Of a DNA stretch of 64,000 nucleotides, positions 45,164-63,703 are shown in pieces. The DNA lies in contig OZ244744.1 of the NCBI GenBank assembly GCA_965219455.1, positions 3,808,001 through 3,872,000 on the forward strand. Reading direction: 5' to 3'. The stretch is from Candidatus Latescibacterota bacterium (GTDB lineage: Bacteria; Latescibacterota; UBA2968; GCA-2709665). Both the position numbers and the translations under genes were made by a program. Numbering within the stretch: the first letter of the stretch is position 1; each line of letters begins with the position of its first letter. The notes under the pieces are model-generated. The model searched no databases and was not told the DNA's origin. It worked only from the letters and a program-made list of their open reading frames with translations.

Positions 45164-45192
45164 TTGCACAGGTTACTGAAATTCGCTATGAT
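45164..45192 (+). promoter_or_regulatory. Putative sigma70 promoter of the aspartic protease gene
   Basis: TTGCAC-N17-TATGAT; a similar promoter precedes the pseudogene copy near 49055. Confidence 0.55.
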
Positions 45193-45236
45193 TCAAAGAA
45201 TTCAATAGTGAAACCTGTTCACTAGGAGAACGGCCA

Positions 45237-45599: not shown

Positions 45600-45725
45600 C
45601 GTGGAGGAGCCGGCGTAGAACTCATAGCAATCTCTCTTGTCATATTTCGGCTTGACAAGACCCCCGGATACGTAAGATTTCTACTTAAACTGAGCACACG
45701 GCAAATCCATCCTCCGGGGTATCAC

Positions 45726-45974
45726 ATGAACGGTAAGATCTTCAATGAAGACAATCTTCGATTCGCCATTTTTCTACTGGCCTTATGGGGATCTCTATGG
45801 AGTTTCTCATCTGGAATCAACCAAAGAATAGATAGACTCGAAGATCGACTGACTCAAAGCATAGGCAAATTAGAAAATAAAATGGAAACAAGGTTTGACG
45901 CGATTGATTCACGTTTGGATTCCTTCGGGGAGCGCATTGCCGCGAACGAAGCAAAAATAAACGCCAAAGAGTAA
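45726..45974 (+). CDS. Small AT-rich protein: one TM helix plus coiled coil
   Basis: Hydrophobic helix followed by RIDRLEDRL heptads. Confidence 0.55.
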   Translation: MNGKIFNEDNLRFAIFLLALWGSLWSFSSGINQRIDRLEDRLTQSIGKLENKMETRFDAIDSRLDSFGERIAANEAKINAKE

Positions 45975-46573
45975 AACCATCCGCCCGACAATCCCGCCAA
46001 CATCCCACCTGCCAGTATAACCTATTGGCAGGCTTTGTTATGCCATCCTGCCTGAATTGCGATCCCCCTCCCACTGTCATCCTGAGGAGGCCGCCCTGCC
46101 TGCCGGAGAATCATTGGCAGGCAGGCTGACGAAGGATCTACTGCGGCATGGGACCATTCCCGCACGAGTTGCCGGTGTCGAAACCTGAGAGGCGGCACGT
46201 CCGCCCCTTCTTGCGGCGTCGGTTCTCTGTTGTTTCCCATAGCGACGTCGAAAAAAGAAAAACGGCATGCGATTCGAATCGCTATCGCGAATCCGTGTCT
46301 CATTGGGCGAAAAAACACAAGAATTCACCAAGAATTCATCACAAACAGCCTGCATTTCAGTGATAATTCAACAAATATGTGTTAATTTGCCGTGTACACC
46401 GACGCAATTTGCAACACATTTGTTTACCATCGAGCCGCTGAGTCACCCTCGCGCGGTACCGTCCGTAGATTCGAGTCAGAATGCCGTCCCTGGATTCCAC
46501 GGCCCCGGGCAGCGGCGGGCGACGGTTGCGGTTCACGAATTAAAGAGGTTACGTGACAATTTCCTTTATTTCA

Positions 46574-46624: not shown

Positions 46625-47593
46625 ATGGAACGAACGATGAGCCGCGCCGCGCGGCTCAAGGCGATCGAAACCTTTCTCTATCGATCCGCGGGCGGAAGGA
46701 GAGCGACCGATATCGCCGCGCGATTCGGCGTGCATCGAAGTACGGTGTACCGGGACATTCAGTCGCTGGGGGAGGCGGGTTCACCGATTTGGGAGGATAA
46801 CGGGCGGTTCGGCGTGCTGAAGGACAAGTATCTGACCACCGTCCGGGTGAATCTGCACGAGGCGCTCGCGCTCTACCTGGCCGCGCGCCTGCTCTCCGCG
46901 CACAGCGACGAACACAATCCCCACGTGGTGTCCGCCCTCGAGAAACTCTCAAGCGCAATACCCGAGTCCATTGGCGAACACATCAATCGGACCGCGGCGG
47001 TCGCCGACAAACGCAGACCCGATCCCGATCATATCCGCGTTCTGGAAACGCTCACGCGCGCCTGGTCCGAACGCAGGCAGGTGCGTCTGATCTACCACAA
47101 CCCGCAAACCGGCGAAACCACCGGGCGCACGATAGATCCCTACTTTATCGAGCCGTCACCCGTGGGATACGCAAGCTATGTTATCGGATATGACCATTTG
47201 CGGCGGGATATTCGAGAGTTCAAGGTGGAGCGCATCCAGCGGGCGACGCTGTTGGAGGCGATGTACGAAACGAGGGAAGGATTCGACCCGTACGATTTCC
47301 TGCAGCATTCGTGGGGCATTATGGGTGGGGACGAGGTTGTGGATGTCGTGCTTCGGTTTTCAGCGAAGGTAGCGTACCGCGTGCGTGAATCGGACTGGCC
47401 TGGCGTGGTGGAGGTGGCGGACGAGCCGGACGGCGGCTGCAGAATGCGGCTCACGGTGAAGCATACGCTGGAGATGAAACCGTGGATTCGAGGATGGGGG
47501 CCGGAGTGCGAGGTACTGGCGCCGGAGGACCTGAGACGGACGATTGCGGAAGATATGATTGCGGCGGGGGAGGTCTATCGCAAAAGGTCGTAA
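46625..47593 (+). CDS. HTH-WYL-WCX transcriptional regulator
   Basis: ARFGVHRSTVYRDI HTH; RTIDPY..YVIGYD..REFKVERI WYL; WIRGWGPECEVLAP WCX. Confidence 0.92.
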   Translation: MERTMSRAARLKAIETFLYRSAGGRRATDIAARFGVHRSTVYRDIQSLGEAGSPIWEDNGRFGVLKDKYLTTVRVNLHEALALYLAARLLSAHSDEHNPHVVSALEKLSSAIPESIGEHINRTAAVADKRRPDPDHIRVLETLTRAWSERRQVRLIYHNPQTGETTGRTIDPYFIEPSPVGYASYVIGYDHLRRDIREFKVERIQRATLLEAMYETREGFDPYDFLQHSWGIMGGDEVVDVVLRFSAKVAYRVRESDWPGVVEVADEPDGGCRMRLTVKHTLEMKPWIRGWGPECEVLAPEDLRRTIAEDMIAAGEVYRKRS

Positions 47594-49688: not shown

Positions 49689-50318
49689 ATGAAATCCTAT
49701 ACAGTGCAACTCGAAATTGCCGGTCCTACGGCCATGTGGACTCGGCCGGACACCGGATCGTCACCGGTGTCTTATGTGGCACCTACCTTCAGTGCAGTGA
49801 AAGGAATCTTTGAGTCTGTCCTTCGTTGGAAATCCGCAAATGTGCGCCCGGTGAAAGTGGAAATATGCCGGCCAGTCCAGTTTCATCGTTACGTCACCAA
49901 CTACGGCGGGCCATTGCGTGCATCTGACGCAATAAGGAAAGGCGCATCATTCCAGTTATTTGCGATGGTGCTGGTGAACGTTTGCTACCGGCTCTACGCT
50001 GAGGTGGACTGGAATCGCGGGCCAAACGGGGAACGGGCGCAGGCACCTGATGGTCAATGTTCACCTCATGCTTTTCAGGATGCCTTCAACCGTCGGTTGG
50101 TGAACGGCCAGTGGTTTTATACGCCCTGCCTCGGGTGGAAGGAGTTCGCCCCGGATTATATGGGGCCGTTTCGTCCAGAGACATGCGTGTGCGAAAGCGA
50201 AAGTCACGAATTGCCCTCCATGTTGCGCATGGTATTTGACCGCCCGCAGCAAGGTTGCATCAAGCCAAGCTTCAGCCAGGGAATGAAAGTTGAGAAAGGA
50301 GTCCTGGTCTATGCTTAA
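49689..50318 (+). CDS. cas5: Cas5 (type I-C-like)
   Basis: LEIAGPTAMWTRPD..VSYVAPTFSAVKGIFESVL; PCLGWKEF. Confidence 0.9.
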   Translation: MKSYTVQLEIAGPTAMWTRPDTGSSPVSYVAPTFSAVKGIFESVLRWKSANVRPVKVEICRPVQFHRYVTNYGGPLRASDAIRKGASFQLFAMVLVNVCYRLYAEVDWNRGPNGERAQAPDGQCSPHAFQDAFNRRLVNGQWFYTPCLGWKEFAPDYMGPFRPETCVCESESHELPSMLRMVFDRPQQGCIKPSFSQGMKVEKGVLVYA

Positions 50319-52506
50319 TGAACTGTATCAGGTCTCGCAGAGTCTGGAGCGCGTGGGCATCAATTTCCCATCGCGAGATTCGCGCATCAGCCCGATGGGA
50401 AAGAATAGGGAATTGTTGATCGTGCGGCTGAATGACGATGCGGAACTGTCCGACATGGAGTTCGTTTCAGGAGCAGTGGCAGCCAATCTTTATCGGGTTG
50501 AGCACGGTTCGGCGGGTTCCAGCTTCCCCGGGTTCAATCTCCCCACGCCACTTCGAGACCTCACTCAGGTATCCACTGACTTGAAACCTGTTTTGCAGCG
50601 GCTCAGTGACCTTTGGAAAAAAAAGGATTCATCTACAGAGCAGATTCACGATGCCATGAAGGAACTCGCTCAATTGTCTTGTGGGTACCCATTCACCGGC
50701 AGTCAATGCAAGCAGTTCAAGCGCTCGGTCATCGAGTTGGTTCAGGAGCTTCAAGGCACGTTCTGCAAGGCCGGGCCGGAACTGACCAGCTTCAAACGAC
50801 TTTTGGATGTGGTCGGACGAGCCGAACTCGACTTAGAGCGGTTCGTCCAGAACCTAACGAACGCCTTGCTTCGGACGGCGAAGACAACAGACCGCAAGAC
50901 CCTCTCCTCAATTCAGGGAGTCTTATTCGGTGTGCTTGATTGGAAAAAGCGCAGTGCCGATTTGGGAACAGTCGAATACGAAGAAGAAAAGGCAAAGCGA
51001 GATAAAAACGCCAATCAACCTATTTATCTGGATGTAGCAAATATGGATCACAGATTCAAGCCCGTCGCTCATCAGGATACGAGTAAAGCGATAAACAAAA
51101 TTCTGGTCCAGCAATCCAATGCGGAAGATCAGACTGATCAAAGTGTGGTTGACGCCTTTGGAAGTCGAGGTTCATTGCAGGACAAGTATCCAACGCCAAA
51201 GATCGCAAAACTCGGTGATATGAAGCTTTTTTCAGTGAATACGAACGAAATTTCAGCATTGAATCGCTATGGACTGAAGGGATCCAAGCAGTTCCCAGCA
51301 TCCACTCAGGTCGTACAGAAGATGAGCGACGTTCTGCTCTACTTGGGTGATGAAGGAAGAGAAGAGGGCGTTACTTGGAAGCCAGTCCCGGGTAACCTTG
51401 TGGACAGAAAGGGTAAAAACAAAAACGACTTGTTGATCGCCTATCTGGAGGAAGCACCGGAATTTCAGGAAGAACTGGCCGATCTATTCGGTGGCGAGGC
51501 ACCGTCCTTTGGTGATGACGATTTCGCGGCACGTACGCAGCCCGTGCTACAGGTATTAGATGCCAAGTTAAAGACGGAGCCGAACCTGAAAGTTCGACTT
51601 CTGGCGCTCTGTTCACTCGACAAGGCACGCAAGCAGATCAGCCTGCATCGCCAGTTCCGTGTGCAGGACGTCGTTCAGGCGGCTTGTGGGTGGAAGACCG
51701 GAGCCGCCAACACGCCGCCTGTTTCCATCTGGTTCTATGACAAGAAGGAAAAGAAAGCTGTATGGAAACCTCATGTTGTACCTCACCCACTTGACCTGAC
51801 ATCGGTCATAAATCGCGTCTGGAATTCCGACCCCAAGTCCGGCTTTAAATTCAAATTCCAGCGAGCTGTCATGACGTCGGACGCTTACGACGTATTCTTT
51901 GCTGACGGACCAATATCCGAGAGTAAGACGCGCTCTTGCTTTTCTCTTCTTTTGCATCGGATGTCTCCGGTCCTTGTTCGCCTCGGTGGAGTCAAGACCA
52001 GCCGTAATTGGAAAAACTTGAGTGAGACAATTCGCTGGCAATGCAGGAAGGCGATTTCACTCATCGGCATTCTCCTTCATCAACTCGAACATCGAAAGGA
52101 TCAATTTATGAAAGACTCAATCTATCAAATCGGGCGGCTGCTGGCTCTGGCCGACAGCCTGCATTTTCAATACTGTAAGTGGGTCCGCACCTCGGACGGC
52201 AAGCGCAAGAACGGCGAGGTGGATGCGCCTTCCGAATTGCTCGGCAACTCACTTTTCAACTTCGCCCTCGAAGACCCGGTAGCGGCACTCGCCCGTCTCG
52301 CCGAGCGTATTCGGCCGTACAAGGGCTGGGCAGATACCTACTCGGGTGAGGACGCAGGATTGGTTCACTGGTTTGTTCGCCAAATGGGCGAATGCGAACG
52401 CCAGTTTGATGCTACCGATCTTCCCAATCGCATGGAAGACATTCACAAAGCGCAACTCCTTCTCGGCTACTTGGCCGATCATCCGAAGACTGAAATGGAG
52501 GATTAA
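50311..52506 (+). CDS. cas8: Divergent Cas8 large subunit
   Basis: Lies between cas5 and cas7; MLNELY start; C-terminal YQIGRLLA...LLGY resembles Cas8c/Cas11. Confidence 0.7.
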   Translation: MLNELYQVSQSLERVGINFPSRDSRISPMGKNRELLIVRLNDDAELSDMEFVSGAVAANLYRVEHGSAGSSFPGFNLPTPLRDLTQVSTDLKPVLQRLSDLWKKKDSSTEQIHDAMKELAQLSCGYPFTGSQCKQFKRSVIELVQELQGTFCKAGPELTSFKRLLDVVGRAELDLERFVQNLTNALLRTAKTTDRKTLSSIQGVLFGVLDWKKRSADLGTVEYEEEKAKRDKNANQPIYLDVANMDHRFKPVAHQDTSKAINKILVQQSNAEDQTDQSVVDAFGSRGSLQDKYPTPKIAKLGDMKLFSVNTNEISALNRYGLKGSKQFPASTQVVQKMSDVLLYLGDEGREEGVTWKPVPGNLVDRKGKNKNDLLIAYLEEAPEFQEELADLFGGEAPSFGDDDFAARTQPVLQVLDAKLKTEPNLKVRLLALCSLDKARKQISLHRQFRVQDVVQAACGWKTGAANTPPVSIWFYDKKEKKAVWKPHVVPHPLDLTSVINRVWNSDPKSGFKFKFQRAVMTSDAYDVFFADGPISESKTRSCFSLLLHRMSPVLVRLGGVKTSRNWKNLSETIRWQCRKAISLIGILLHQLEHRKDQFMKDSIYQIGRLLALADSLHFQYCKWVRTSDGKRKNGEVDAPSELLGNSLFNFALEDPVAALARLAERIRPYKGWADTYSGEDAGLVHWFVRQMGECERQFDATDLPNRMEDIHKAQLLLGYLADHPKTEMED
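52108..52506 (+). CDS. cas11: Putative internally translated Cas11 small subunit
   Basis: Internal SD AAAGGA plus in-frame ATG immediately before YQIGRLLA; 132 aa. Confidence 0.6.
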   Translation: MKDSIYQIGRLLALADSLHFQYCKWVRTSDGKRKNGEVDAPSELLGNSLFNFALEDPVAALARLAERIRPYKGWADTYSGEDAGLVHWFVRQMGECERQFDATDLPNRMEDIHKAQLLLGYLADHPKTEMED

Positions 52507-52511
52507 CGTAT

Positions 52512-53435
52512 ATGAATGCTAAAGAACAAAGAGACACCACCCGGGTTCCTCGAATCACTGGGCTGCTTGTCATTGAAGTCCGCAAATCCAACCCCAACGG
52601 CGACCCTGAACGCGAAAGTTCGCCGCGCCAGCGCCCAGACGCCAAAGGCGAGATCTCGCCGGTGTCCATCAAACGCAAGCTCCGTGATCTGGTCTTGGAA
52701 AAAGAGGGCGTGGTCTGGCAGGAGCTCAAGGGCAAACTGGAAATTCAGAGTGACCAGCAGTTCCAGATTCTCGAGTATCGCGGGAGAAACCGCGACGAAA
52801 TCAGAAAACTCATGGAAACTCCGAAGGGCCAACTCTCCCAAGCGTTCAAAGATGCCTACTGGGACGGACGCCTGTTTGGGAATACGTTCCTCGAAGAAGG
52901 CGGTGGGGATACGATCCGTGCCGGGGTGGCACATTTCGGCGTCGGCGTTTCTGTGGCACCGATAGAAATCGAGTTTTCAACGTGGACGAACATGGCTGGT
53001 GTTCAAGAGGGCAAAGATCGCGGCATGGCCCCAATGGGATTTCGCGTCCTAAAACATGGCGTTTATGCTGCACCTTTTTTCGTCAATCCCAGTTTGGCCC
53101 ACAAGACGGGATGTACGAAACTCGACATTGACCTGATGCTTGAGCTTCTACCACTGGCATACGCGCATACCCGCTCGGTTGTTCGAACAATGGTCGAGGT
53201 AGTTCACGCTCACGTTTTCACCCATAATAAGCCGCTCGGTTCGCTGTCGGATTTCGCTCTACTGGATGCGCTCACGCCCCGCAAGACATCGGACCTGGAC
53301 AAGCCGTCAAACTCACTGGGCGAGTACGAGATTCCGACTTGGGATGAGATCAAAGAGAAACCTATTCGGGCCGGAGCCAAGAAAACATTTTCGGATTGCG
53401 GAACTTACCGCGACTACACACTTGATAGCGAGTAA
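52512..53435 (+). CDS. cas7: Cas7 (Csd2/Cas7c-like)
   Basis: SNPNGDP..PR, SIKRKLRD, YWDGRLFG, AHKTG. Confidence 0.9.
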   Translation: MNAKEQRDTTRVPRITGLLVIEVRKSNPNGDPERESSPRQRPDAKGEISPVSIKRKLRDLVLEKEGVVWQELKGKLEIQSDQQFQILEYRGRNRDEIRKLMETPKGQLSQAFKDAYWDGRLFGNTFLEEGGGDTIRAGVAHFGVGVSVAPIEIEFSTWTNMAGVQEGKDRGMAPMGFRVLKHGVYAAPFFVNPSLAHKTGCTKLDIDLMLELLPLAYAHTRSVVRTMVEVVHAHVFTHNKPLGSLSDFALLDALTPRKTSDLDKPSNSLGEYEIPTWDEIKEKPIRAGAKKTFSDCGTYRDYTLDSE

Positions 53436-53437
53436 AC

Positions 53438-55738
53438 ATGTCGCTTGCCAACCTGTCACCTCTGGCCCACAGCGCCCGAAGGGGCTCGCCAGAGCAGAGC
53501 TACCATGACCATGTGACCAATGTGCGCCGCTTCGCAACCAAGTTTGCTCGCGAAGCGGCGGCATATTCGGAAGGCTGTCGGGAACTCTTTCAAGCTGTGG
53601 TGGAGTTAGTAGCCACTTATCACGACCTTGGTAAGTTGGACGAGATCTTCCAAGACATTCTGCACCGCAACCGCCCCAATAACGAAGGCTTCAATCACGT
53701 CGAAGCAGGCACGGCGTATCTCAAGAAGCTAAAGCAGGGCGAGGCGGCGCTGTGCTGTTTTGCCCACCACATTGGCCTGCCGTCCCTGCCGAAAGAGAAA
53801 GCGAGGGGTGACGGACGGCTGTTTTTGCGTGACGAAAAAGAGTTAAACGTCATCGGGGTTCGGTCTTGGGAACGGACAGACGAACTGCTCGATGGCTATC
53901 TCGCCCAACACCACTCCCTTTTTGATCCGCAGTCAGCCGGTGTTTCTGTCAAGTTCACCGGCTTAGTCCGCCGCCTGGCTTTATCGTGTCTGGTGGATGG
54001 AGACCATAGTGATACCGCGCAGCACTACCAAGAAGAACGTGAACTGGACGGCCTTCCACTTAAGGCCGCTGATCGTTTGCAGGCCTTGGACCGCTACGTA
54101 GAAAACCTCAAGAGTGATCAGACCAACAAGTCCCAAAGAGAAAAGGATCGGCTTCGTTTGCGTCAGAGCATTTATAAGGCGTGCCGTAACAGGACACTTG
54201 AATCCACTGAACGATTTGTCGCCTGTGATAGTCCGGTAGGTACCGGCAAGACCACCGCCGTAATGGCTCATCTGCTGCGCGTCGCTTCCGAACGCGGTCT
54301 GCGCCGAGTGTTCGTAGTTCTTCCATTCACCAATATCATTGATCAGTCCGTTGAAACTTATCGTAGAGCATTGGTGCTGCCTGGTGAAGATCCTGAAGCG
54401 GTGGTCGCCGCTCACCATCACCGTGTTGAGTTTAGTGGTGAGAAATGGAGAGATTTGCGGCAACTGGCTCAGCGCTGGGAAGCACCTGTCGTAGTGACTA
54501 CAGCAGTGCAGTTTTTCGAGACGCTGGCCTCTAATCGGACGATCGGACTCCGAAAACTCCATCAAGTGCCGGGCTCAGCCATCTTCGTAGACGAAGCACA
54601 CGCGGCCATGCCGGCACCGCTGTGGCCTCAGCACTGGCGCTGGTTGAAGGAACTTTGCGATGACTGGAATTCCCACCTCGTTTTCGCCAGTGGTTCACTG
54701 TCGCGTTTCTGGGCATTGGAGGACTTCGTTCCAGTTGAGCAACAGAGTCCCGTTCCTGAACTCCTTACTGGGAAATTGAATGAGCAAGCCCACGCCTTCG
54801 AAGCCAGACGGATTTATCTCAAGAGCCGGGATGATCTGTTGGGTCTGACAGCATTGGCGGATTTTATCGTTGAAAAACCGGGACCTCGATTGGTAATCCT
54901 GAACACCGTGCAATCCGCCGCTATCCTAGCCAAACACCTATGGGATCAATTCTATCCCGGTTGTGGCTGGGCAGGCGAGACGGACTCAAGAGTAGAGCAC
55001 ATCTCAACGGCAATTTGTCCCGCACATCGTGCAGTGATTATCTCCCGAATTAAACAGCGTCTCCGAAACAGATGGGATAACGACTGGACTTTAGTCGCCA
55101 CCAGTTGCGTTGAGGCAGGAGTAGATTTCTCGTTTCGCACCGCCTTTCGTGAACGCTGCAGCTTGACGAGCCTTCTCCAAATAGCCGGACGGGTCAGTCG
55201 CAGTGGCGAATATTCTAAAGCTGAGGTGTGGGATTTTCGACATGACGAATCTGGTTTTCTGAATTTGCATCCCAACTACAAAAGTTCGCGTAGGGTATTT
55301 GCTGACCTATTCGAAGAGTACGGTGAGGATCTTGGCCCTCAGCACTGCACCGAAGCCTTACGTCGAGAAGTCAATTCAGGTTTTGGGAAAACAGAGAACA
55401 TGGCTCGGCAAATCGTTGCCGCTGAGAAAAGTGAAGATTATCCCCAAGTTGCCCAAGACTGCCGGATTATCACAGCGGACACGTGCACGGTGCTTGTCAG
55501 TCAGGAATTGATTAATCGGTTTCAAACAAGAGATCCTAAACAATTTCCGTCGCCCCGCGAAGTCATGAATTATAGTGTGCAGGTGTGGCAAAATAAACTG
55601 AACGAACTACCAGTCACCCAACTACTGGATTTTGAATTAGTTGGCATCCAACCCAACTGCTACAACGGCTTCCTGGGTTACATGCGAGGATTGCTTCCCC
55701 TGTTAAAAGCGCAGCATGATGGAGGAATCGTCTTGTGA
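53438..55738 (+). CDS. cas3: Cas3 HD nuclease-helicase
   Basis: LAHS, HDLGK, HH, PVGTGKT, DEAH, VEAGVD, QIAGRVSR. Confidence 0.95.
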   Translation: MSLANLSPLAHSARRGSPEQSYHDHVTNVRRFATKFAREAAAYSEGCRELFQAVVELVATYHDLGKLDEIFQDILHRNRPNNEGFNHVEAGTAYLKKLKQGEAALCCFAHHIGLPSLPKEKARGDGRLFLRDEKELNVIGVRSWERTDELLDGYLAQHHSLFDPQSAGVSVKFTGLVRRLALSCLVDGDHSDTAQHYQEERELDGLPLKAADRLQALDRYVENLKSDQTNKSQREKDRLRLRQSIYKACRNRTLESTERFVACDSPVGTGKTTAVMAHLLRVASERGLRRVFVVLPFTNIIDQSVETYRRALVLPGEDPEAVVAAHHHRVEFSGEKWRDLRQLAQRWEAPVVVTTAVQFFETLASNRTIGLRKLHQVPGSAIFVDEAHAAMPAPLWPQHWRWLKELCDDWNSHLVFASGSLSRFWALEDFVPVEQQSPVPELLTGKLNEQAHAFEARRIYLKSRDDLLGLTALADFIVEKPGPRLVILNTVQSAAILAKHLWDQFYPGCGWAGETDSRVEHISTAICPAHRAVIISRIKQRLRNRWDNDWTLVATSCVEAGVDFSFRTAFRERCSLTSLLQIAGRVSRSGEYSKAEVWDFRHDESGFLNLHPNYKSSRRVFADLFEEYGEDLGPQHCTEALRREVNSGFGKTENMARQIVAAEKSEDYPQVAQDCRIITADTCTVLVSQELINRFQTRDPKQFPSPREVMNYSVQVWQNKLNELPVTQLLDFELVGIQPNCYNGFLGYMRGLLPLLKAQHDGGIVL

Positions 55739-56388
55739 CACCAGATCAAAACTGCAAGGCTCAAACTGTGAGTCCTCCCGACCCCATCCCTCTCTCACTC
55801 CTCAACGACTTCCTATATTGCCAGCGCCGGGCGGCACTGAAGGCGATTGAGGGGTGGCGCGGGACCAACGAGCATACCGTGGTCGGCGACAGCGTCCACC
55901 AGCGGGCTGACGATTCCAGTTACGAGACCGTCAAGGGCGTGACACTATTGCGCGCCCTACCCGTCTGGTCGGATCGTCTCGGGCTCAGTGGCAGATGCGA
56001 CATTGTCGAGCGGCATCCCGATGGTTCGTTAGTTCCAATAGAATATAAAAAGGGCAAACGTCGCAAATTTGATAACGACGACGCGCAGCTGTGCGCGCAA
56101 GCCTTGTGCTTGGAAGAGATGTTTGGGCTCGAGGTCCCACGAGGGGCTATCTTCCACGCCCGGAGCAAGCGCCGGAGGGAGGTTGAATTCACAGGGGACC
56201 TGCGTCGGCTCACGGTAGAGGCAATTCAGGCGGTACACCGGCTGATCGAGGAAAATGAAGTCCCACGGGCCGTCTATAAACCTCAATGTACAGAGTGCTC
56301 GCTGTTTGACTATTGTCTACCTGAAATTACCAGCGTTCCGCCCACTCTCGCGCAGGCGGCTCGGGAGGTGTTTGACACAACAGGCTAA
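55735..56388 (+). CDS. cas4: Cas4
   Basis: YCQRR, GRCDIVE, PIEYKKG, QLCAQALCLEEM, CxxCSLxxxC. Confidence 0.95.
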   Translation: MTPDQNCKAQTVSPPDPIPLSLLNDFLYCQRRAALKAIEGWRGTNEHTVVGDSVHQRADDSSYETVKGVTLLRALPVWSDRLGLSGRCDIVERHPDGSLVPIEYKKGKRRKFDNDDAQLCAQALCLEEMFGLEVPRGAIFHARSKRRREVEFTGDLRRLTVEAIQAVHRLIEENEVPRAVYKPQCTECSLFDYCLPEITSVPPTLAQAAREVFDTTG

Positions 56389-56430
56389 ATTCGCCCGGCT
56401 GTTGCGGGCCGAGGGGCTCAGTCGCAAATC

Positions 56431-57492
56431 ATGGCCATTATTCAGAACACCCTTTATCTGACGACCTCTGGCACCGTAGTACACAGGGATCATCTGACGC
56501 TTCGGGTCGAGATCGAAAAACAAACCCGATTGACTGTGCCGATTCACCACCTGGAGAGTATCTGTGCATTCGGGAGGGTCGTCGTTACGCCTTCCGCAAT
56601 GGCCTTATGCTGGCGACACCAGGTGGCGGTTCATTTTCATACCGAAAACGGGTACCTGTTGGCGCAGGTACTGGGCAGCGGAGACACCCGCTATCTGTTG
56701 CGTCGAGCACAGTACGCGGCGGCGGACAATCCGGAGGAAGCATCCCGGATTGCCCGCCAGTTCGTTGCTGGGAAATTGCAGAACTCGCGCACCAATTTGC
56801 AGCGGTCCGGCCGCGAGGCCGATACGGATTCGGATCGCGCGGAATTGGCCAGAGCGGCGAGTGAGCTGGCGCGGCTGATCCAGCAACTGGGAAATGCCGA
56901 ACCTTTGCCCCAAGATTCTGGGCTTCGGGAAGCGATTGACCCCATCAGAGGAATGGAGGGTCTCGGCGCCAGGGTATATTTCTCAGCGTTCCAGTATATG
57001 CTGAAACAGCAGCGGGACGACTTCAGGTTCTTGAATCGCTCTCGCCGTCCTCCTCGTGACCGCGTGAACTGCCTGCTGTCCTTCATTTACGCACTGGTGC
57101 GCCACGACTGTTTGGCGGCGTTAACGACCGCCGGATTGGATCCATTCGTCGGATGGCTCCACGCCACGCGGGCTGGAAGACCGGCGTGCGCATTGGATCT
57201 GATGGAAGAATTCCGGCCCTGTTTGGCTGAGCGTCTGGCGTTGACCCTGATCAATCGGCGACAGATTGAGCCAGGGCACTTTCGCGAACGAGAAGGCGGC
57301 GCCGTGGAATTTACCGACCGTGGCAGGAAGGAAGTGATTCAGGCCTGGCAGCGGCGCAAGCAGGCCGAGATAAAGCATGCCCTGTTTAAGGAAAATGTCC
57401 GTCTGGGACAGGTGTTCAGCATTCAAGCCCGGTTGCTCGCGAGGTACCTTCGCGGCGATATTCCCGACTATATTCCGTATATACCAAAGTAA
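56431..57492 (+). CDS. cas1: Cas1 (I-C)
   Basis: NTLYL, RGMEG, RSRRPPRDRVNCLLSF, LDLMEEFRP. Confidence 0.96.
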   Translation: MAIIQNTLYLTTSGTVVHRDHLTLRVEIEKQTRLTVPIHHLESICAFGRVVVTPSAMALCWRHQVAVHFHTENGYLLAQVLGSGDTRYLLRRAQYAAADNPEEASRIARQFVAGKLQNSRTNLQRSGREADTDSDRAELARAASELARLIQQLGNAEPLPQDSGLREAIDPIRGMEGLGARVYFSAFQYMLKQQRDDFRFLNRSRRPPRDRVNCLLSFIYALVRHDCLAALTTAGLDPFVGWLHATRAGRPACALDLMEEFRPCLAERLALTLINRRQIEPGHFREREGGAVEFTDRGRKEVIQAWQRRKQAEIKHALFKENVRLGQVFSIQARLLARYLRGDIPDYIPYIPK

Positions 57493-57530
57493 CGCAGTGT
57501 GTCCACTTTTTGTTGTTTGAGGAGAGCGGA

Positions 57531-57818
57531 TTGAAACTGATCGCGTACGACGTTTCGACAATTGACCGGGCGGGACAAAAACGACTACGCCGCGTGGCGA
57601 GGGCCTGCAAGGATTTTGGAGTTCGTGTACAAAAATCGCTGTTTGAATGCCAGGTTGGTAAAACGGAATGGGCGGTACTTCGAGATCGTCTACTGACGGA
57701 AATCGACCATGAGTACGACTCCCTTCGAATCTATCACCTCGATGAAGACACCGGAAAGGAGACCGAGCATCACGGAATCAGCGAACCAGTGGACCTGTCC
57801 GGTCCGCTTGTCCTGTAG
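57531..57818 (+). CDS. cas2: Cas2 (TTG start)
   Basis: SD GAGGAG; LIAYDVST..RLRRVARAC..RVQKSLFEC..DSLRIY. Confidence 0.92.
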   Translation: MKLIAYDVSTIDRAGQKRLRRVARACKDFGVRVQKSLFECQVGKTEWAVLRDRLLTEIDHEYDSLRIYHLDEDTGKETEHHGISEPVDLSGPLVL

Positions 57819-57998
57819 CTTGCGCGAACGTCAAGTGACGGAAATCTGCTGGTCTGTTCGCGCAAAGGGAAACCGTTTGTCTGACAACAGGTTGTCGAGT
57901 TTATCGACGGGTGGGTCAGCAATTCTACTCGTCTTTTTGATAGAATCGCGCATTCGGTTGTATAAACTGTTGTCTTTGTGCTGGTTGTAGCAACCAGC
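57819..57998 (+). promoter_or_regulatory. CRISPR leader
   Basis: gcgcgaac...gttcgcgc inverted motif after cas2; AT-rich run up to the first repeat. Confidence 0.75.
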
Positions 57999-58912
57999 AT
58001 CTCCCCTCACTCCGGTGGGGGGAGCGGATTGAAACTAAAATCCCACGTGCTGACAGTTGATAGCCCGCCGTATCTCCCCTCACTCCGGTGGGGGGAGCGG
58101 ATTGAAACGTTCGCCCGGACGCCGTCCCGGAAAAGGGGTGGCGCAATCTCCCCTCACTCCGGTGGGGGGAGCGGATTGAAACGCCTTCAAGTCCACGGGC
58201 GTTTCATTTACCGCCTGGCCGATCTCCCCTCACTCCGGTGGGGGGAGCGGATTGAAACCTCGAAGATGGCGAACTTCGCGTGATTATTCAGCGATCTCCC
58301 CTCACTCCGGTGGGGGGAGCGGATTGAAACATCCGACGTATGGGCCAGGCATTTCGCCGGAACTCGATCTCCCCTCACTCCGGTGGGGGGAGCGGATTGA
58401 AACATCAGGAATTGGCTGATCCCGTCTATGTCGGCTCTGGATCTCCCCTCACTCCGGTGGGGGGAGCGGATTGAAACCCGGAGCGTAAGGCTGTCAGACC
58501 TTCAAATGCCGATCTCCCCTCACTCCGGTGGGGGGAGCGGATTGAAACGGCGCTGCGATCGAGATTCAGAAAACGGTCAAGAATCTCCCCTCACTCCGGT
58601 GGGGGGAGCGGATTGAAACAGACAAAGAGCGACGCAGAAGGCCGAAAATCCCTGCATCTCCCCTCACTCCGGTGGGGGGAGCGGATTGAAACACTTTCGC
58701 TTTTCCGCAGGCTGACTGCACCACGTGCATCTCCCCTCACTCCGGTGGGGGGAGCGGATTGAAACTGACTTACAATGCCGCAAACCGTGATTATTCTTCG
58801 ATCTCCCCTCACTCCGGTGGGGGGAGCGGATTGAAACGTGGAAGACCGATTATGCCGAGATGGCCAAGAAGACAGATCTCCCCTCACTCCGGTGGGGGGA
58901 GCGGATTGAAAC
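57999..58912 (+). CRISPR. CRISPR array A: 13 identical 37-bp repeats, 12 spacers of 34-39 bp
   Basis: ATCTCCCCTCACTCCGGTGGGGGGAGCGGATTGAAAC at 57999, 58072, 58146, 58222, 58294, 58367, 58441, 58512, 58583, 58656, 58729, 58801, 58876. Confidence 0.98.
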
Positions 58913-58943
58913 CGGGCGGTAGCCACGTCCCATCAAGTTTGAG

Positions 58944-58975
58944 GTCGCTCTCCGTGAGGGAGCGTGAATTGAAAC
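58944..58975 (+). CRISPR. Single 32-bp repeat of the canonical I-C type (family B)
   Basis: GTCGCTCTCCGTGAGGGAGCGTGAATTGAAAC, with 31- and 37-bp spacers on either side. Confidence 0.75.
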
Positions 58976-59012
58976 TCGCACCTCTCGCGCAGTTCGAGAA
59001 AGTCGCCAACGA

Positions 59013-59121
59013 CCCCGCGGAATACTCCCATCAGAACAAGGATTGAAACCGTAGCGCGGTCTCGCTGCCTGTCATGCTGCCGAGCCCGGTGAGAATCTTC
59101 CATCGGAACAAGGATTGAAAC
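59013..59121 (+). CRISPR. Two 37-bp family C repeats with a 35-bp spacer
   Basis: ccccgcggaatactcccatcagaacaaggattgaaac and cccggtgagaatcttccatcggaacaaggattgaaac. Confidence 0.8.
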
Positions 59122-59178
59122 TCCACCACTCCGCGTCCCGCGCGGCCACACCCACCCCAGCCCAGGAGCCCGAACCCG

Positions 59179-60660
59179 ATGGGCGCGATGGAACGCCTCA
59201 CAGCAGACATCCAGGCGCTGCCGCTCGACATCGGGCGGATCATCGTCGGCGGGGTCCTGTTTGTCTACTTCCTCAACACGCTCAGGCAGGCGCCCGACTT
59301 CAGCGATCCCGACGGCTTGATCGACCACTGCCTGGTGTGCCGGCTCTTCCCTCCCACCCGCGTGAGCCTCTTTCAGCCGGGGATGCCGGGGGTGCTGTTC
59401 CGCGGCGTCTTCGTCTGCGCGTGCGGGGCGGCGCTCATGGTGGTCGCGGGCTTCCATCCGCGCGCAGCCGGAGCGTTCCTCTTCCTGTCGGCGTTGTCCG
59501 CCCTGCGCTGGAACGTGCTGGCCAGCTACCTCGACGACGCCATGATCCACATCTTCTGCCTGTGGATCGTGCTGCTGCCGGTGGGGAGTACGCTGAACGT
59601 GCCGGATCTGATCGCGGGGGGTTGGGGAAGCGCAACCACCGACACCTGGATCTCAGCGACCGTCCCCGGGGCCGCCCCCCGCGCCTTCATCGCCAACATG
59701 GCGCTCATCTATATCGTCGCCGGACTATACAAGTTCACAAGCCCGATGTGGCGCGACGGCTCCGCGATGCACTCCGCGCTCCGCATGCCAATCGCGCACG
59801 CGCCAGACTTCTGGACGTTGCGGTGGCGCACCCCGCTCCGTCTGGTAACCTGGGCCGCGCTGATCCTGGAGCCCCTCTTAGCGCTCATCTTCGTGCTGCC
59901 GCCAGGCTCGGCGCTCAAGTGGCTGCTGGTCGCGGGGGCCATCGTCTTCCACCTCGGGATCGCGTTTACGCTCAAGATCCCGTACTCCAACTCGGCGATG
60001 CTCGCCGCAATCCCGCTCGCCCTCGCGCCCGAGATCATGCAGGGCTGGCTGGGGCCGCCGCCGCTGGAGGGGGCTGTCGTGACGGCCGGCAATGCCGCCG
60101 CCGCTAACGACGGCCCCGGCCCCGCCGGCTGGATCGCCCTCACCCTCGTTGCGCTGATCGTGATCCAGGTCGTCTGGGAGGCCGTCAACACCGGTCGCCG
60201 GCTCCGCCCCCGCTATTCGTCGAGCGGCTGGGACAACCCGGTCCGCGCCCTCCTCTGGATGGCCGGCATCTTCCAGAGCTACCGCCTCTTCGACTGGGTC
60301 GACGAACGCAACCATCACGTGCGCTTCGAGGTCACGCGGGTGGGGCCGGGCACCCCCCTCAATCCCGACGCCATCTTCCCCCAGACCATGCGTCACCTCC
60401 TTCTCCAGTCGTACCTTGTCGGCAACATCTGGATGCGGATGAGCCCCGACCAACTCGAGCAGGTCCGCCGCTCGATCCTCATCCGGCACGCCCGCCGCTA
60501 CGCCCGCACGCACCCTGACGCGGGCACGATCGAAGCGGTCGCGATCGTGCAGCGGGTCACCGACGAGAACCTCGAGCTCACCCGCGGGGAGCGGCGGCCC
60601 ATGATGCGCTTCACCTGCCGGGGGGGCAGCGCCGTCATGCATCATCCACGAGAGGAATAG
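59179..60660 (+). CDS. HTTM-domain (SdpB/gamma-carboxylase-like) membrane protein
   Basis: FSDPDGL, LIYIVAGLYKFTSPMWRDGSA, VFHLGIA; many TM helices; soluble C-terminal domain. Confidence 0.75.
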   Translation: MGAMERLTADIQALPLDIGRIIVGGVLFVYFLNTLRQAPDFSDPDGLIDHCLVCRLFPPTRVSLFQPGMPGVLFRGVFVCACGAALMVVAGFHPRAAGAFLFLSALSALRWNVLASYLDDAMIHIFCLWIVLLPVGSTLNVPDLIAGGWGSATTDTWISATVPGAAPRAFIANMALIYIVAGLYKFTSPMWRDGSAMHSALRMPIAHAPDFWTLRWRTPLRLVTWAALILEPLLALIFVLPPGSALKWLLVAGAIVFHLGIAFTLKIPYSNSAMLAAIPLALAPEIMQGWLGPPPLEGAVVTAGNAAAANDGPGPAGWIALTLVALIVIQVVWEAVNTGRRLRPRYSSSGWDNPVRALLWMAGIFQSYRLFDWVDERNHHVRFEVTRVGPGTPLNPDAIFPQTMRHLLLQSYLVGNIWMRMSPDQLEQVRRSILIRHARRYARTHPDAGTIEAVAIVQRVTDENLELTRGERRPMMRFTCRGGSAVMHHPREE

Positions 60661-60669
60661 GGGGCGGCC

Positions 60670-62568
60670 ATGTGCGGCATTGCAGCGATCCTGTCCCGCA
60701 ACGGGCCCGTCGACGCGGGAGCCCTCCGCCGCGCCACCGGGGCCTTGCGGCATCGTGGGCCGGACGCGGAGCGTACCTGGGTTTCTCCGAGCGGCAGGAT
60801 CGGGCTGGGTCACCGGCTCCTCGTGATCAACGACCCCGAGGGCCACCAGCCGATCGCGAGCGAGGACGGGCGGCTGCACATCGTCGTCAACGGCCAGTTC
60901 TACGACTTCGCGCGCATCCGTACGTCACTCGAAGCCCGGGGGCACCGTTTCCGCACCCGCTCCGACAGCGAGATCGCGCTGCACCTCTACGAGGACCACG
61001 GCGCAGCGTGCCTGGAGCACCTGCGCGGCCAGTTTGCCTTCGTGGTCTGGGACGAGGAGACCGGCAACCTCTTCGCGGCGCGCGACCGCTTCGGCCTCAA
61101 GCCGCTCTTCTACACCGAACACGACGGTGCGCTCTACCTCGCGTCCGAGGCGAAGGCACTCTTCGCGGCGGGGGTGCCCCGCGCGTGGGACACCCAGGGC
61201 GTGTATCACTGGCTGCTCGCCTGCCCGGATGAGCGGCGGTCGCTCTTCGACGGGATCCGGCAGGTGCCGCCCGGGCACTTGATGAGGGCCAGTAACGGAT
61301 CAGTGCGGCTGCAGGGCTACTGGGACCTGCCGGCGTCGCCGCCGGGGGGGCGAGATGCCCCCGACTTCCCCCGCGCCGTCGAGCACGCCCGCGAACTCAC
61401 CGAGGAGGCGATCCGGCTGCGCATGGTAGCCGGGGTCCCCGTCGGCTGCCTGATCAGCGGCGGCCTCGATTCCTCTTCCGTCCTGGCCGTGGCGGCCACC
61501 TGCACGGACCGCCCGGTCGCCGCCTTCACGGTCGGGTTCGAGCGGCGCGAATTCGACGAGAGCCCGGGGGCACGGGAAGCGGCCGCCGCCGCCAACGCCG
61601 ACCACACCGTCGTCACGCTCAGCGACGCCGACCTGGCCGATCACTTCGCCGACGCCGTGTGGCACGCCGAGACGCTTCAGTTCAACACCCACGGCGCGGC
61701 GCGCTACCTGCTGAGCCGGGGCGTGCGCGACGCAGGCTACCGCTCGGTCCTCGCAGGCGAGGGCGCCGACGAGGCCTTCTTCGGCTACGAGTTCCTGCTC
61801 GCGGCGGCTGGTGCATCCCGCGGCGGATTCGGTCCGCGCAAGCTGCTGCGCATCCTGTCGGGATTCCTGCGCTCCCCCCGGCGCCACCACCCTACCCTGG
61901 CCGCCGTCTCCCCCTGGCTCGCCCGCCTCGCCCTCCTCCTCCCGGCGGCCCCCTCGCTCTTTACGCGGCTCTCGGGTGGACTCGGCCTCATCCAGTCGGT
62001 CTGCTCACGCGACTTCCTGCACCGCTTCGACGGCTACGACCCCTACCGCACCTATTACCTCCGCTGCAAGGAGGCCGCCGCCATCTCCCGGCGCGAACCG
62101 GCCCGGCAGCTCCTCTACCTCTGGCTGCACTCGATCTTCGCCAACTACCACATGGCCGCCGACCGGCTCGACATGGCGCACGGCGTCGAAGTCCGCCTCC
62201 CCTTCCTCGACCACCACCTCTTCGAGCACCTGAACCGCCTCCCGCTCGCCCTCCTCACCGACCATCCCCGCGAAAAGCACCTCCTGCGCGAGGCCATGCG
62301 CCCCCACATCCCGGACTCGGTGTACGGGGCGGTGAAGCGACCGTTCATGGCGCCATCGGCGGTTGGGGTGGACGGGCCGCTGCACGATTTTCTGCAGGAC
62401 ACGTTGCGGGGGGAGGGGCTGCGGGCCGTGCCGTTCGTGGATGCGGCGGCGGTGGGGGGCGTGCTGGACGGGCTGCCGCAGGTGGGTGAGCGGGAGCGCG
62501 GGTCGGTGGATTCGCTGCTGTTGATGCTGGCTTCAGTGGCGGTGTTGCAGGAGCGGTGGGGGTTGTAA
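60670..62568 (+). CDS. asnB: Asparagine synthase (glutamine-hydrolysing)-like amidotransferase
   Basis: MCGI, HRGPD, ARDRFGLKPL, SGGLDSS, GEGADE, EVRLPFLD. Confidence 0.92.
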   Translation: MCGIAAILSRNGPVDAGALRRATGALRHRGPDAERTWVSPSGRIGLGHRLLVINDPEGHQPIASEDGRLHIVVNGQFYDFARIRTSLEARGHRFRTRSDSEIALHLYEDHGAACLEHLRGQFAFVVWDEETGNLFAARDRFGLKPLFYTEHDGALYLASEAKALFAAGVPRAWDTQGVYHWLLACPDERRSLFDGIRQVPPGHLMRASNGSVRLQGYWDLPASPPGGRDAPDFPRAVEHARELTEEAIRLRMVAGVPVGCLISGGLDSSSVLAVAATCTDRPVAAFTVGFERREFDESPGAREAAAAANADHTVVTLSDADLADHFADAVWHAETLQFNTHGAARYLLSRGVRDAGYRSVLAGEGADEAFFGYEFLLAAAGASRGGFGPRKLLRILSGFLRSPRRHHPTLAAVSPWLARLALLLPAAPSLFTRLSGGLGLIQSVCSRDFLHRFDGYDPYRTYYLRCKEAAAISRREPARQLLYLWLHSIFANYHMAADRLDMAHGVEVRLPFLDHHLFEHLNRLPLALLTDHPREKHLLREAMRPHIPDSVYGAVKRPFMAPSAVGVDGPLHDFLQDTLRGEGLRAVPFVDAAAVGGVLDGLPQVGERERGSVDSLLLMLASVAVLQERWGL

Positions 62569-62657
62569 GGGATCGCTTGGTGGGCCAAAATGTAAGACAG
62601 ACCTTACAGAATGTCGTGTTTGTTGTACATGTCGCTTGCGTCCGACGCTGGACGACT

Positions 62658-62678
62658 TAACATAAGCAGCTTATGTTA
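62658..62678. promoter_or_regulatory. Perfect palindrome (operator-like) before a small ORF
   Basis: TAACATAAGC-A-GCTTATGTTA. Confidence 0.55.
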
Positions 62679-62683
62679 TTGAC

Positions 62684-62878
62684 ATGGACAACACAATCCG
62701 AAGTTATCTCGCCGAAATCGGTCGGAGAGGCGGCAGGAAGAGTCGTCGCACTCTGGACCCGGAGACCGCCAGGGCCATGGTCCGCGTCCGCGAGGCCCGG
62801 CGGGCGTATCGCAAGTACAACGCCACATGTTTCTGGTCCTACCGCAAGGATCTGAGTATCGGCCTGACCGATGTGCCT
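62684..62878 (+). pseudogene. Small basic protein truncated at a CRISPR repeat
   Basis: YLAEIGRRGGRKSRR...CFWSY..DVP, then the frame runs into repeat C and IS21. Confidence 0.55.
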
Positions 62879-62899
62879 GGTGAGAATCTTCCATCAGAA
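62876..62899 (+). CRISPR. 5' 24 nt of a family C repeat, cut by IS21
   Basis: cctggtgagaatcttccatcagaa, 22/24 identical to 59085-59108. Confidence 0.75.
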
Positions 62900-63703
62900 T
62901 GTCAATGATCGCCCATATGCGGCCAATGCGGGATCGGCCTAATCAGGCCACCTGGGATGCGATTGAGGTTTCGGACTTTCCGTCAACGATTCTACCTTCT
63001 GAGTGTCTCCCCGACATTCAGGAGGGAAGAACATGGCAAACCGGAGGTTCGAGATGTATGAGTATCGCCAGGTATTGGCGCGTATGCGGTTGGGCGAGTC
63101 GGATCGTGCGATCGCCCGTTCAGGGTTGATAGGACGCCAGAAGGGCAGCGCTTGTCTGTGCGCCTGCGCGCAACGCGCGGGCAGGCGCACAGGCAGGCGC
63201 TTCGTGAGGTGGCCGGCCGTGAGGGATGGCTGGAGGCTTCCAGCGTGATGCCCGATGATGCGGCGCTCGCGCAGGTTCTACAGCACCCTTCCTCGCGTCC
63301 TCAGTCGGCGGCGTCGGTTTTGCTCTACCAGGACAAGGTCACGGCCTGGTGGCGTCAGTGTATCCGAGGTACGGTCATCCACCAGGCGTTGGTGGACACC
63401 TGCGGCTATGCCAGCTCGTATTCTTCCATCCGGCGTTTTCTCCAGGGGCTCAAAGGCGCTCATCCCGATGTCACCACCGAGTTGGACTTCGATCCCGGCG
63501 ACGTGGCGCAGGTGGACTTTGGGCGTGGTCCAACCATAAAGGACGTCTTAACACACCAGTCCATCGCGACGTGGATCTTCGTGATGGTGCTGGCCTGGTC
63601 TCGCCACCAGTATGCCGAGATCGTACCGGATCAAAAGGTCGAGACGTGGCTTTGCTGCCATCGAAGCGCCTTCGAGTTCTTCGGCGAGCGCCGGCATTCT
63701 TGA
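62900..63703 (+). mobile_element. istA: IS21-family element (left end and disrupted istA)
   Basis: TGTCAATG left end; MANRRFEMYEYRQVL at 63033; PGDVAQVDFG, FVMVLAWSRHQY; frameshift and early stop. Confidence 0.85.
63151..63197. repeat. 47-bp nested palindromic insertion that frameshifts istA
   Basis: cttgtctgtgcgcctgc..gcaggcgcacaggcagg; removing it restores KGSALREVA. Confidence 0.75.

Follow-up and report, generated by a model that had tools for sequence, protein, structure and literature searches.

Arrays of CRISPR repeats are normally read as clean time series of a single system, and normal spacer acquisition copies the leader-proximal repeat. In canonical type I-C systems, the genes follow the order cas3-cas5-cas8c-cas7-cas4-cas1-cas2, and Cas5 cleaves the precursor CRISPR RNA (pre-crRNA) at the foot of the repeat hairpin, on its 3' side, leaving an 11-nucleotide (nt) 5' handle; in systems of the Cas6 type, a repeat that ends in ATTGAAAC gives rise to the 8-nt handle of the mature crRNAs. 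Departures from this regular picture have been described. In the available part of one account, divergent, non-consensus repeats are located at the leader-distal end, the trailer is considered the most stable part of an array, and unlike repeats are held to resist recombination (PMC8047081); in the available part of another, arrays without matching cas genes are read as remnants or as being used in trans, and several subtypes can share one complex locus (PMC7145637). Here, we analyze the trailer end of a CRISPR array in a stretch of 64,000 nt from a Candidatus Latescibacterota bacterium (assembly GCA_965219455.1, contig OZ244744.1, positions 3,808,001 to 3,872,000 of the forward strand; hereafter, the window), where repeats of three families, denoted A, B and C, follow one another in register. 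The locus is probably a composite, in which the live A array of a variant of type I-C has become fused to fossils of two other repeat families, canonical I-C (B) and Cas6b-dependent I-B (C), at a CRISPR hot spot.

The genome under study (G000) is a single contig and was compared with 60 relatives; its genus holds 15 genomes, namely, 14 congeners and G000 itself. Related genomes are designated by G-numbers and fetched loci by L-numbers, and coordinates past the end of the window are genome coordinates minus 3808000. The array opens with 13 identical copies of the 37-nt repeat A (ATCTCCCCTCACTCCGGTGGGGGGAGCGGATTGAAAC) and 12 spacers of 34-39 nt (57999..58912), and this portion looks active. The last copy, A13 (58876-58912), is followed by a 31-nt spacer (58913..58943), which is slightly short for the range of the A array; a single copy of the 32-nt repeat B (GTCGCTCTCCGTGAGGGAGCGTGAATTGAAAC; 58944..58975), which belongs to the canonical type I-C family; a 37-nt spacer (58976..59012); the 37-nt unit C1 (59013..59049), which is decayed and belongs to the I-B family of the Cas6b type; a 35-nt spacer free of open reading frames (ORFs) (59050..59084); and C2 (59085..59121), also 37 nt, a near-consensus member of the same family as C1. 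All these units are on the plus strand, and the spacers of 37 and 35 nt are within the A-array range. An earlier description of this DNA made from the letters alone (the sequence-only reading) had reported precisely this switch through three families with gaps of 31, 37 and 35 nt, and it can be read directly from the sequence. All units of the three families finish in the 8-mer ATTGAAAC, which occurs 20 times in the window compared to 1.96 occurrences expected, a count reached in none of 100 shuffles. The 5' edge of the C units is approximate, good conservation being limited to the 3' ~25 nt; C1 and C2 are 92% identical across the 25-nt 3' part and agree at ~29 of the 37 positions in a hand alignment. 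In a functional unit, a repeat is identical or near-identical to its neighbors and is hence recognized by the enzymes of acquisition and processing; B, C1 and C2 do not match their neighbors in this way, and three families stand side by side.

The junction is genuine. It is bridged by short-read contigs of three runs, belonging to three studies, that start at A13, continue past C2 and reach the flank, with 0-1 differences: one contig covers 58883-59700 with 1 difference (X2 record 13), another covers 58882-59244 with none (X3 record 17), and two contigs of the remaining run cover 58883-59051 and 59022-59244, again with none (X1 records 2 and 3); one of the three runs may be the source sample. 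The contigs of one metatranscriptome run (X7) include some A units and the gene that follows C2, none of them extending over 58933-59154, and these contigs are uninformative on absence. The 8-mer common to all three families could, in principle, mislead an assembler, and B can be aligned gap-free, with 74% identity, to the 27 nt at the 3' end of A, but the notion that the switch is an artefact, whether a chimeric assembly at ATTGAAAC or a product of mutation of A, is barely credible. These were the two findings by which the sequence-only reading could have been overturned. The first is ruled out by the bridging contigs of three studies together with the one-contig genome, and the second is rejected given that C2 agrees with the motif of its own family at 30 of 31 positions and that the pattern of B recurs in at least 118 foreign DNA stretches, so that B and C belong to separate families.

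The A array is served by the sole cas locus found in the genome, an operon on the plus strand (49689..57818; cas5, cas8, cas7, cas3, cas4, cas1, cas2) that encodes a divergent type I-C system. Cas1 passes TIGR03640, the model of the I-C protein Cas1c (418.9 bits against a cut-off of 385), and Cas4 (129.3) and Cas2 (52.6) both score over their cut-offs. The best NCBIfam models for Cas5, Cas7 and Cas8 are also those of I-C, all below cut-off (Cas5d, 40.3 against 85; Csd2, 115.7 against 182.25; Csd1, 22.7 against 218.65); of the corresponding Pfam models, Cas_Cas5d is over its cut-off (42.2 against 23) and Cas_Csd1 just under (23.6 against 27). The best match of Cas3 is an I-G model, below cut-off, and the gene order departs from that of canonical I-C, with cas3 located after cas7 and not first in the operon. 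Between cas2 and the first A repeat lies a plus-strand leader of 180 nt (57819..57998), where a consensus scan found no sigma-70 promoter and a scan reported a terminator-like hairpin at 57906-57933; a TTGATA and TATAAA pair separated by 18 nt was seen in the leader by eye only, with no tool call. The RNA of repeat A folds into a 10-base-pair (bp) stem capped by a tetraloop, with 11 nt left over as a 3' tail (-20.1 kcal/mol), and none of 200 shuffles was as stable. By analogy with the known mode of I-C processing, Cas5 would process the A repeats in G000, and the 13 A units would constitute the working array of a divergent I-C system that does without Cas6.

Several additional features of the A system are worth recording. 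The last 14 nt of A, GAGCGGATTGAAAC, occur on the plus strand at 57524..57537, where, 460 nt ahead of the array, they overlap both the TTG start and the ribosome-binding site of cas2, with the same overlap in G013 (L019); this fragment may represent what is left of a repeat or, alternatively, a regulator resembling a crRNA. The newest A spacer (58036-58071) matches, at 26 of 29 nt, a spacer in a C-type (I-B) array of G003 (L017 18621-18649; E 0.008), and the G000 A system and the G003 I-B system may aim at the same mobile element. Two A spacers have near-equal 15-nt ends (CGTGATTATTCAGCG at 58279-58293 and CGTGATTATTCTTCG at 58786-58800), which suggests two acquisitions from related targets.

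Repeat B is related to A, with which it can be aligned over the latter's 3' two thirds, yet the hairpins of the two are built differently. The B pattern, GTCGC..CCGTG.GGGAGCG..ATTGAAAC, is found in at least 118 DNA stretches of public genomes from many phyla, many of these with several matches ~66 nt apart, and in both loci that were checked (Azospirillum doebereinerae, L051, and Desulfobacteraceae, L100), the array with this pattern directly follows Csd2-Cas4-Cas1c-Cas2 genes. In these loci, the I-C genes score over cut-off: Csd2 (353 bits; in L051 only), Cas4, Cas1c (516 and 523 bits) and Cas2. Because the pattern forms arrays behind such genes, B is, to judge by its sequence, a canonical I-C repeat, as the sequence-only reading had recognized by resemblance, and it has the features of one: 32 nt, a GTCGC start, an internal G+C hairpin (-11.1 kcal/mol; one of 200 shuffles as stable) and the ATTGAAAC end. 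No multi-unit B array was found; G000 has two single units, B and, beyond the window, a second B-type unit denoted B', and the pattern search returned none in the 60 relatives.

The C family has a different partner. Its exact 26-nt 3' core is present in 23 of the 61 genomes searched, one of these being G000 itself; G003, G006, G009, G011, G015 and G026 have 38-140 matches each, and the arrays have a period of ~74 nt where positions are listed (G003, G006, G009 and G011). The G009 array is located after an I-B operon that encodes Cas6b (PF17262, 111 bits), Cas8, Cas7 (Cst2/DevR, 221 bits), Cas5b, Cas3, Cas1 and Cas4, and the three Cas6b genes detected among the 15 genomes of the genus are all within ~9 kb of a C array. 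The suspicion, likewise voiced from the letters alone, that C comes from a Cas6-dependent system is thereby borne out, and C is best described, on the evidence of core and gene neighborhood, as a separate family dependent on Cas6b of type I-B. With respect to the 31-nt C motif, C2 has 1 mismatch and C1 has 5 (26/31); the RNA of C1 is unstructured (-1.7 kcal/mol, 173 of 200 shuffles as stable) and that of C2 is weakly structured. The segment 59073-59121 is 89.8% identical to 82795-82843 (G000 3890795-3890843), such that the last ~12 nt of the C1-C2 spacer are conserved upstream of that C copy.

The partner genes of B and C are missing from G000. The genome has one cas1 gene and, by k-mer scan, one CRISPR array. 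There are 17 other periodic k-mer clusters, of which the seven inspected are all coding tandem repeats with periods of 49-105 nt and the remaining 10 have 3-4 copies each. (Coding tandem repeats with 60-72-nt periods are seen at 13053-13380 and 2859-3102 of the window and at other sites of the genome; they are not arrays and, by eye, have the look of leucine-rich repeats.) Searches of G000 with four Cas6 families gave no match, there was none to PF17262, TIGR02585, TIGR01877, PF01881, PF10040 or PF03787 and none for repeat-associated mysterious proteins (RAMP), and Cas10/Csm1 reached 29 bits against a cut-off of 170. When 10 proteins of G009 were searched against G000 with tblastn, nothing was recovered for Cas5b, Cas7, Cas8b or Cas6b, the only hits being weak matches to cas4, cas1 and cas3 of the window and one 25-amino-acid (aa) match. 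The lack of a cas6 gene, which the sequence-only reading had stated for the window, thus extends to the rest of the genome as searched. Because there is a single cas1, a single array and no Cas6, RAMP or Cas10 over threshold, B and C are most likely unused fossils; in particular, the C units would not be processable, and hence would be inert, because no I-B genes, Cas6 or second effector were found. Maturation would be conceivable at most for the 31-nt spacer that separates A13 from B, provided that the B hairpin is accepted by Cas5.

This gene inventory bears directly on one of the two interpretations originally offered for the switch, namely, a hybrid array serving several effectors in trans, with the B and C units transcribed together with A for effectors or processing enzymes encoded elsewhere. 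All units are indeed co-oriented and in register, a scan found no terminator-like site on the plus strand between A13 and the downstream genes, and G011 retains 76 uniform C units without detectable Cas6b or Cst2/DevR Cas7. However, given the absence from G000 of any detected second effector or processing enzyme and the presence of two C units only, one of which, C1, has five mismatches in 31 nt and lacks structure, a functional hybrid array is very improbable, and this part of the original proposal finds no support.

Comparison with the congeners points to the kind of site at which such a composite could arise. Positions 36736-46149 of G000 are syntenic with the upstream flank of the I-B locus of G009 (82-88% identity) and positions 67248-69992 with its downstream flank (74%); the same chromosomal site holds the I-B operon and C array in G009, and the I-C-variant operon and A array in G000. 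The adaptation proteins of G000 are close to those of G010, G011 and G013 (Cas1, 90-96%, and Cas2, 86-94% identical), whereas Cas8 and Cas3 are only 26-27% and 45% identical, respectively, between G000 and G010/G011, and the effector gene order of G013 is different, which indicates a swap of effector modules beneath one adaptation module. A WYL/WCX-domain helix-turn-helix regulator encoded upstream of the cas operon (46625-47593) is 89-92% identical in G011 and G013 despite the differing effector genes. In G011 (L018 and L141), cas2 is matched in two pieces ~1.7 kb apart and seems, from its sequence, to be interrupted, and the cas8 homologues of G010 (L139) and G011 each have one in-frame stop codon.

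The arrangement of A and C repeats in these relatives is itself mosaic. In G013, a DUF4432 gene comes after the 37 A units, along with the C copy known from G000 (97% identical). The 20 A units of G011 give way to a small ORF, then to a C repeat, a truncated DUF4432 gene and a 76-unit C array, past which come another small ORF, a C-DUF4432-C segment, a 36-nt gap and an A-like repeat. The DUF4432 gene with the C copy that follows it is common to G000, G011 and G013 at 96-97% identity. Between the A arrays of G010, G011 and G013 and that of G000, no extended identity and no shared A spacers were seen, the 70-76% identity observed being what the repeats alone would give. The loop of the A hairpin differs: it is TTCG in 37 of the 37 A repeats of G013, in 31 of 31 of G010 and in the two trailer-most of the 20 of G011, and TCCG in the other 18 of G011 and in all 13 array repeats of G000.

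In G000, too, the repeats do not stop at C2; the change at 58913 forms just one border of a wider mosaic, located for the most part outside the window. C-type repeats are found at 59013, 59085, 62876, 65321, 66605, 79056, ~82494, 82813 and 83679, all on the plus strand, over ~25 kb, and several of them end 28-84 nt ahead of a gene start. Some 7.7 kb downstream of the array lies a mini-array (66599-66864; G000 3874599-3874864) that consists of a C repeat, a 36-nt gap, B' (30 nt), a 34-nt gap, an A repeat with the TTCG loop, a 37-nt gap and an A repeat with an 18-nt insertion, followed by a T run; the scan made no terminator call after this degenerate last A. B and B' differ at 3 of 21 positions in the 5' part and by 2 nt in length. 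Each of the two A/C boundaries, A13-B-C1 and C3-B'-A14, thus has a B-type unit, an arrangement suggestive of a bounded insert. Because its TTCG loop is that of the A repeats of G010 and G013 and of the trailer-most A repeats of G011, the TTCG-type A of the mini-array seems to derive from the trailer that the A array originally had, and the mini-array as a whole resembles that trailer after displacement. For the relic spacers, no match was found in the genome or in the fetched loci at E <= 0.05; a short-seed search with 10 sequences over 45 kb gave only 11-mers at chance level (~0.56 expected per relic spacer) and one 13-mer, between the A14-A15 spacer of the mini-array and position 62638, which we do not take as a target.

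The DNA between the C copies is equally heterogeneous. Directly after C2, a plus-strand block of 3.5 kb (59122..62683) carries genes for an SdpB/HTTM-like membrane protein (59179-60660) and an amidotransferase of the asparagine synthase family (60670-62568), both on the plus strand and both identified by family match. The G+C fraction of this block is 0.65-0.735 compared to 0.51-0.64 in the flanks, its comparison with the 14 congeners gave no DNA match except for two short pieces, one of 30 nt (E 2e-4) and one of 50 nt (E 8e-4), and it looks like recent foreign DNA between two C repeats. It is followed by a 74-aa ORF (62684..62908, plus strand) without a Pfam match in either of two scans, the last codons of which come from a truncated C repeat, Cp (62876..62899, plus strand). 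Cp consists of the 5' 24 nt of a C repeat (23 of 25 bases agree with the 5' part of C2) and is cut by a remnant of an insertion sequence (IS), a frameshifted and truncated transposase gene on the plus strand (62900..63703) with a weak match to the Pfam integrase core, rve (E 3.3e-4), which, from its N-terminal sequence, we take to be IS21/IstA. Farther along, a 1.2-kb duplication with 95.6% identity starts exactly at a C repeat and includes the DUF4432 gene (G000 3873316-3874539, L001 7316-8539, and G000 3887050-3888270, L002 3050-4270). At G000 3881511-3886269 (L001 15511-17841 and L002 65-2269), adjacent ORFs encode an N-terminal half with DUF4011 and AAA_11 and a C-terminal half with AAA_12, an MTES_1575 nuclease and DUF3320. 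Such halves usually form one large helicase-nuclease, and the gene may be split or frameshifted.

How these pieces came together can be outlined with some confidence in the general process and less in its details. Under the composite scenario, co-oriented repeats of three families, all with the 3' end GGATTGAAAC, would have recombined repeatedly, and such recombination, together with module replacement at the hot spot, would have brought B, C1 and C2 into register with A, while G000 would have lost its I-B genes along with the bulk of the C array. Because recombination-prone repeats share the 3' GGATTGAAAC, the scattered C copies in one orientation, the foreign DNA and IS remnant lodged between C copies, and the mini-array would all find an explanation. 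The relics themselves persist probably because unlike repeats cannot recombine with A, if the resistance of such repeats to recombination stated in the available part of PMC8047081 applies here. The other interpretation offered originally was a layered record, with one array growing at a single leader where the Cas system was replaced twice, such that C would be the oldest, then B, then A. The succession of Cas systems at one site stands, given I-B with C in G009 and the I-C variant with A in G000 between syntenic flanks; the leader-A-B-C direction also fits the oldest repeats being at the trailer, and the DUF4432 gene with its C relic (96-97%) is common to G000, G011 and G013, whereas no shared A spacers were seen. 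What does not survive is the simple stack: A repeats with the TTCG loop lie downstream of C in G000, as an A-like repeat does in G011, which also has A and C arrays in tandem; C copies run on for ~25 kb, interleaved with genes; B is found in none of the 60 relatives; and, acquisition being a copying of the leader-proximal repeat, a switch of family needs recombination anyway. Strict layering is, therefore, an unlikely account of the locus. Two courses of events can be envisaged within the composite scenario: an I-B cassette replaced upstream of an old C array would agree with the A-B-C direction, and C-bearing DNA inserted into an A array would agree with the A relics downstream.

The composite scenario itself faces several difficulties. 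The data fit more than one order of events, B being especially hard to account for, and a single crossover would be expected to leave a clean 5'-A/3'-B hybrid on the left side, which neither B-type unit is: B' has an A-type 3' end, and the left junction has no hybrid. The A-B-C-C junction and the relic spacers were found in no relative. The I-C model matches of Cas5, Cas7 and Cas8, on which the subtype of the live system partly depends, are under the NCBIfam cut-offs; the inertness of B and C is deduced from gene absence; and G011 (95% complete, 5 contigs) has a uniform 76-unit C array, yet no Cas6b or Cst2/DevR Cas7 was found there, so that either the loss is very recent, or C arrays are usable without I-B genes.

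A further facet of the C repeats emerged from the spacer slots of the related genomes. A protein family of ~58 aa with the motif WHPDGTP...PVPT...WAE is encoded exactly between CRISPR repeats, with an example in G000 (L002:6630-6815; G000 3890630-3890815) and loci L142-L171 in the relatives. It is present in 12 of the 14 congeners, in G000 and in one further genome of the wider family, and in none of the 46 other genomes searched; all 37 matches are on contigs or in regions that also hold a CRISPR locus or C repeats. In 27 of the 28 copies examined, a C or A repeat is located no more than 111 nt upstream or 98 nt downstream, and in 18 of the 28 the match begins within 13 nt of the end of a preceding repeat; the start codon is mostly ~4-5 nt past the ...GGATTGAAAC end of the repeat, and the stop codon is 0-30 nt before the next one. 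The median ratio of nonsynonymous to synonymous substitution rates (dN/dS) is 0.305 over 123 pairs, every pair being below 1, so that the gene is, by this sequence measure, under purifying selection. The protein matches no Pfam family (best, DUF7423, E 0.2) and gave no usable match in Atlas; its three database relatives are all without name or 'hypothetical', and an AlphaFold model (predicted local distance difference test score 82) retrieved nothing from PDB or viral structures with Foldseek at E <= 0.001. Among viral contigs, none has an exact C 24-mer and none encodes a relative of the protein; a viral origin of the C repeats or of the ~58-aa protein is thus unsupported. A search for papers on two-repeat arrays and in-array reading frames, narrow, limited to open access and with supplementary files outside it, returned none with this arrangement.

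These genes invite two alternative views of the C copies. Conceivably, although we regard this as a speculative and rather improbable proposition, the I-B repeats are the junctions of an integron-like cassette region, with genes in spacer slots, read-through of the array, excision of the genes as separate messages in genomes that have Cas6b, and repeat-repeat shuffling between genomes. The shuffled cassettes would be the ~58-aa protein, which is the clearest case, DUF4432, an endonuclease/exonuclease/phosphatase-fold protein and the HTTM-AsnB block, and the cassette region would have one of its edges at B, C1 and C2, where the A array ends. Unlikely, too, and on a par with strict layering, is the view that the C copies are functional solitary repeats, be it cassette junctions, modules for RNA processing or translation start, or regulatory crRNA-like or decoy RNAs for adjacent genes. 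All C copies of G000 are on the plus strand, several at 28-84 nt before a gene start; the ~58-aa family sits exactly between C repeats, repeat-flanked in 27 of 28 copies and with the low dN/dS given above; and solitary repeat units and crRNA-like regulators are known elsewhere, as described in the available parts of PMC10651486 and bioRxiv 10.1101/2024.12.27.630466. Against a function of the solitary copies, the C1-C2 gap is of ordinary spacer length and ORF-free, G000 has no Cas6b and thus no known binder of C repeats, the relic spacers show no complementarity to neighboring DNA beyond chance, and viral contigs yielded neither the C 24-mer nor any relative of the small protein. We therefore retain the composite of a live A array and fossils as the preferred reading of the junction proper.

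Whichever detailed scenario holds, the locus has practical and conceptual implications. The trailer end would be misread by automatic array callers and in analyses of spacer chronology. A single site exchanges effector modules wholesale but retains its adaptation genes and repeat, carries tandem arrays of I-B and I-C, and gathers foreign genes between repeats, which makes the modular evolution of CRISPR-Cas and repeat-mediated recombination testable in closely related genomes. If functional, the ~58-aa gene in spacer slots would represent a use of CRISPR repeats that was not found in the narrow literature search described above.

Set against the known systems, the locus shows both likenesses and differences. 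B shares its length of 32 nt, GTCGC start, hairpin and ATTGAAAC end with the canonical I-C arrays of A. doebereinerae and Desulfobacteraceae, but in G000 it is confined to isolated copies, one in the window (B) and one past its end (B'), and the system of the window itself differs from canonical I-C in having a 37-nt repeat of its own with a 10-bp stem and in the placement of cas3 after cas7. C2 resembles the repeats of the Cas6b-dependent I-B arrays of G009, G003 and G006 in the conserved 3' part ending in ATTGAAAC, and the C RNA is weakly structured or unstructured in both, but unlike those genomes, G000 has two in-register C units and scattered singles, with no Cas6b or I-B effector genes found. 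Single C copies beside genes, outside regular arrays, are reminiscent of solitary repeat units, RNA anti-CRISPRs and crRNA-like regulators. According to the available parts of PMC10651486 and bioRxiv 10.1101/2024.12.27.630466, these are carried by viruses or plasmids or pair with the promoters of regulated genes; the G000 locus is, instead, chromosomal and syntenic with G009, with zero viral copies and no target complementarity beyond chance. As for integrons, in their gene-cassette arrays, co-oriented short repeats part promoterless genes downstream of one promoter region, with content that varies between relatives. The C region would be analogous in its co-oriented repeats between genes and in cassette content that differs among relatives, but an integron integrase and attC are not involved, the repeats are CRISPR repeats, and the mobility of the units is putative.

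Two further parallels concern the array as a whole. As in known cases of terminal-repeat divergence, the non-consensus repeats of G000 are at the leader-distal end, but known divergent terminal repeats are point-mutated or truncated versions of the array's own repeat, whereas here they belong to two other families that have arrays of their own elsewhere. Unlike orphan or remnant arrays, the remnant in G000 is fused in register to the live array of another subtype, with further copies interleaved with genes. The locus thus extends three known phenomena, namely, divergence of terminal repeats, remnant arrays and modular exchange of cas genes, and adds to them an unusual feature that lends itself to testing, the gene-bearing spacer slots.

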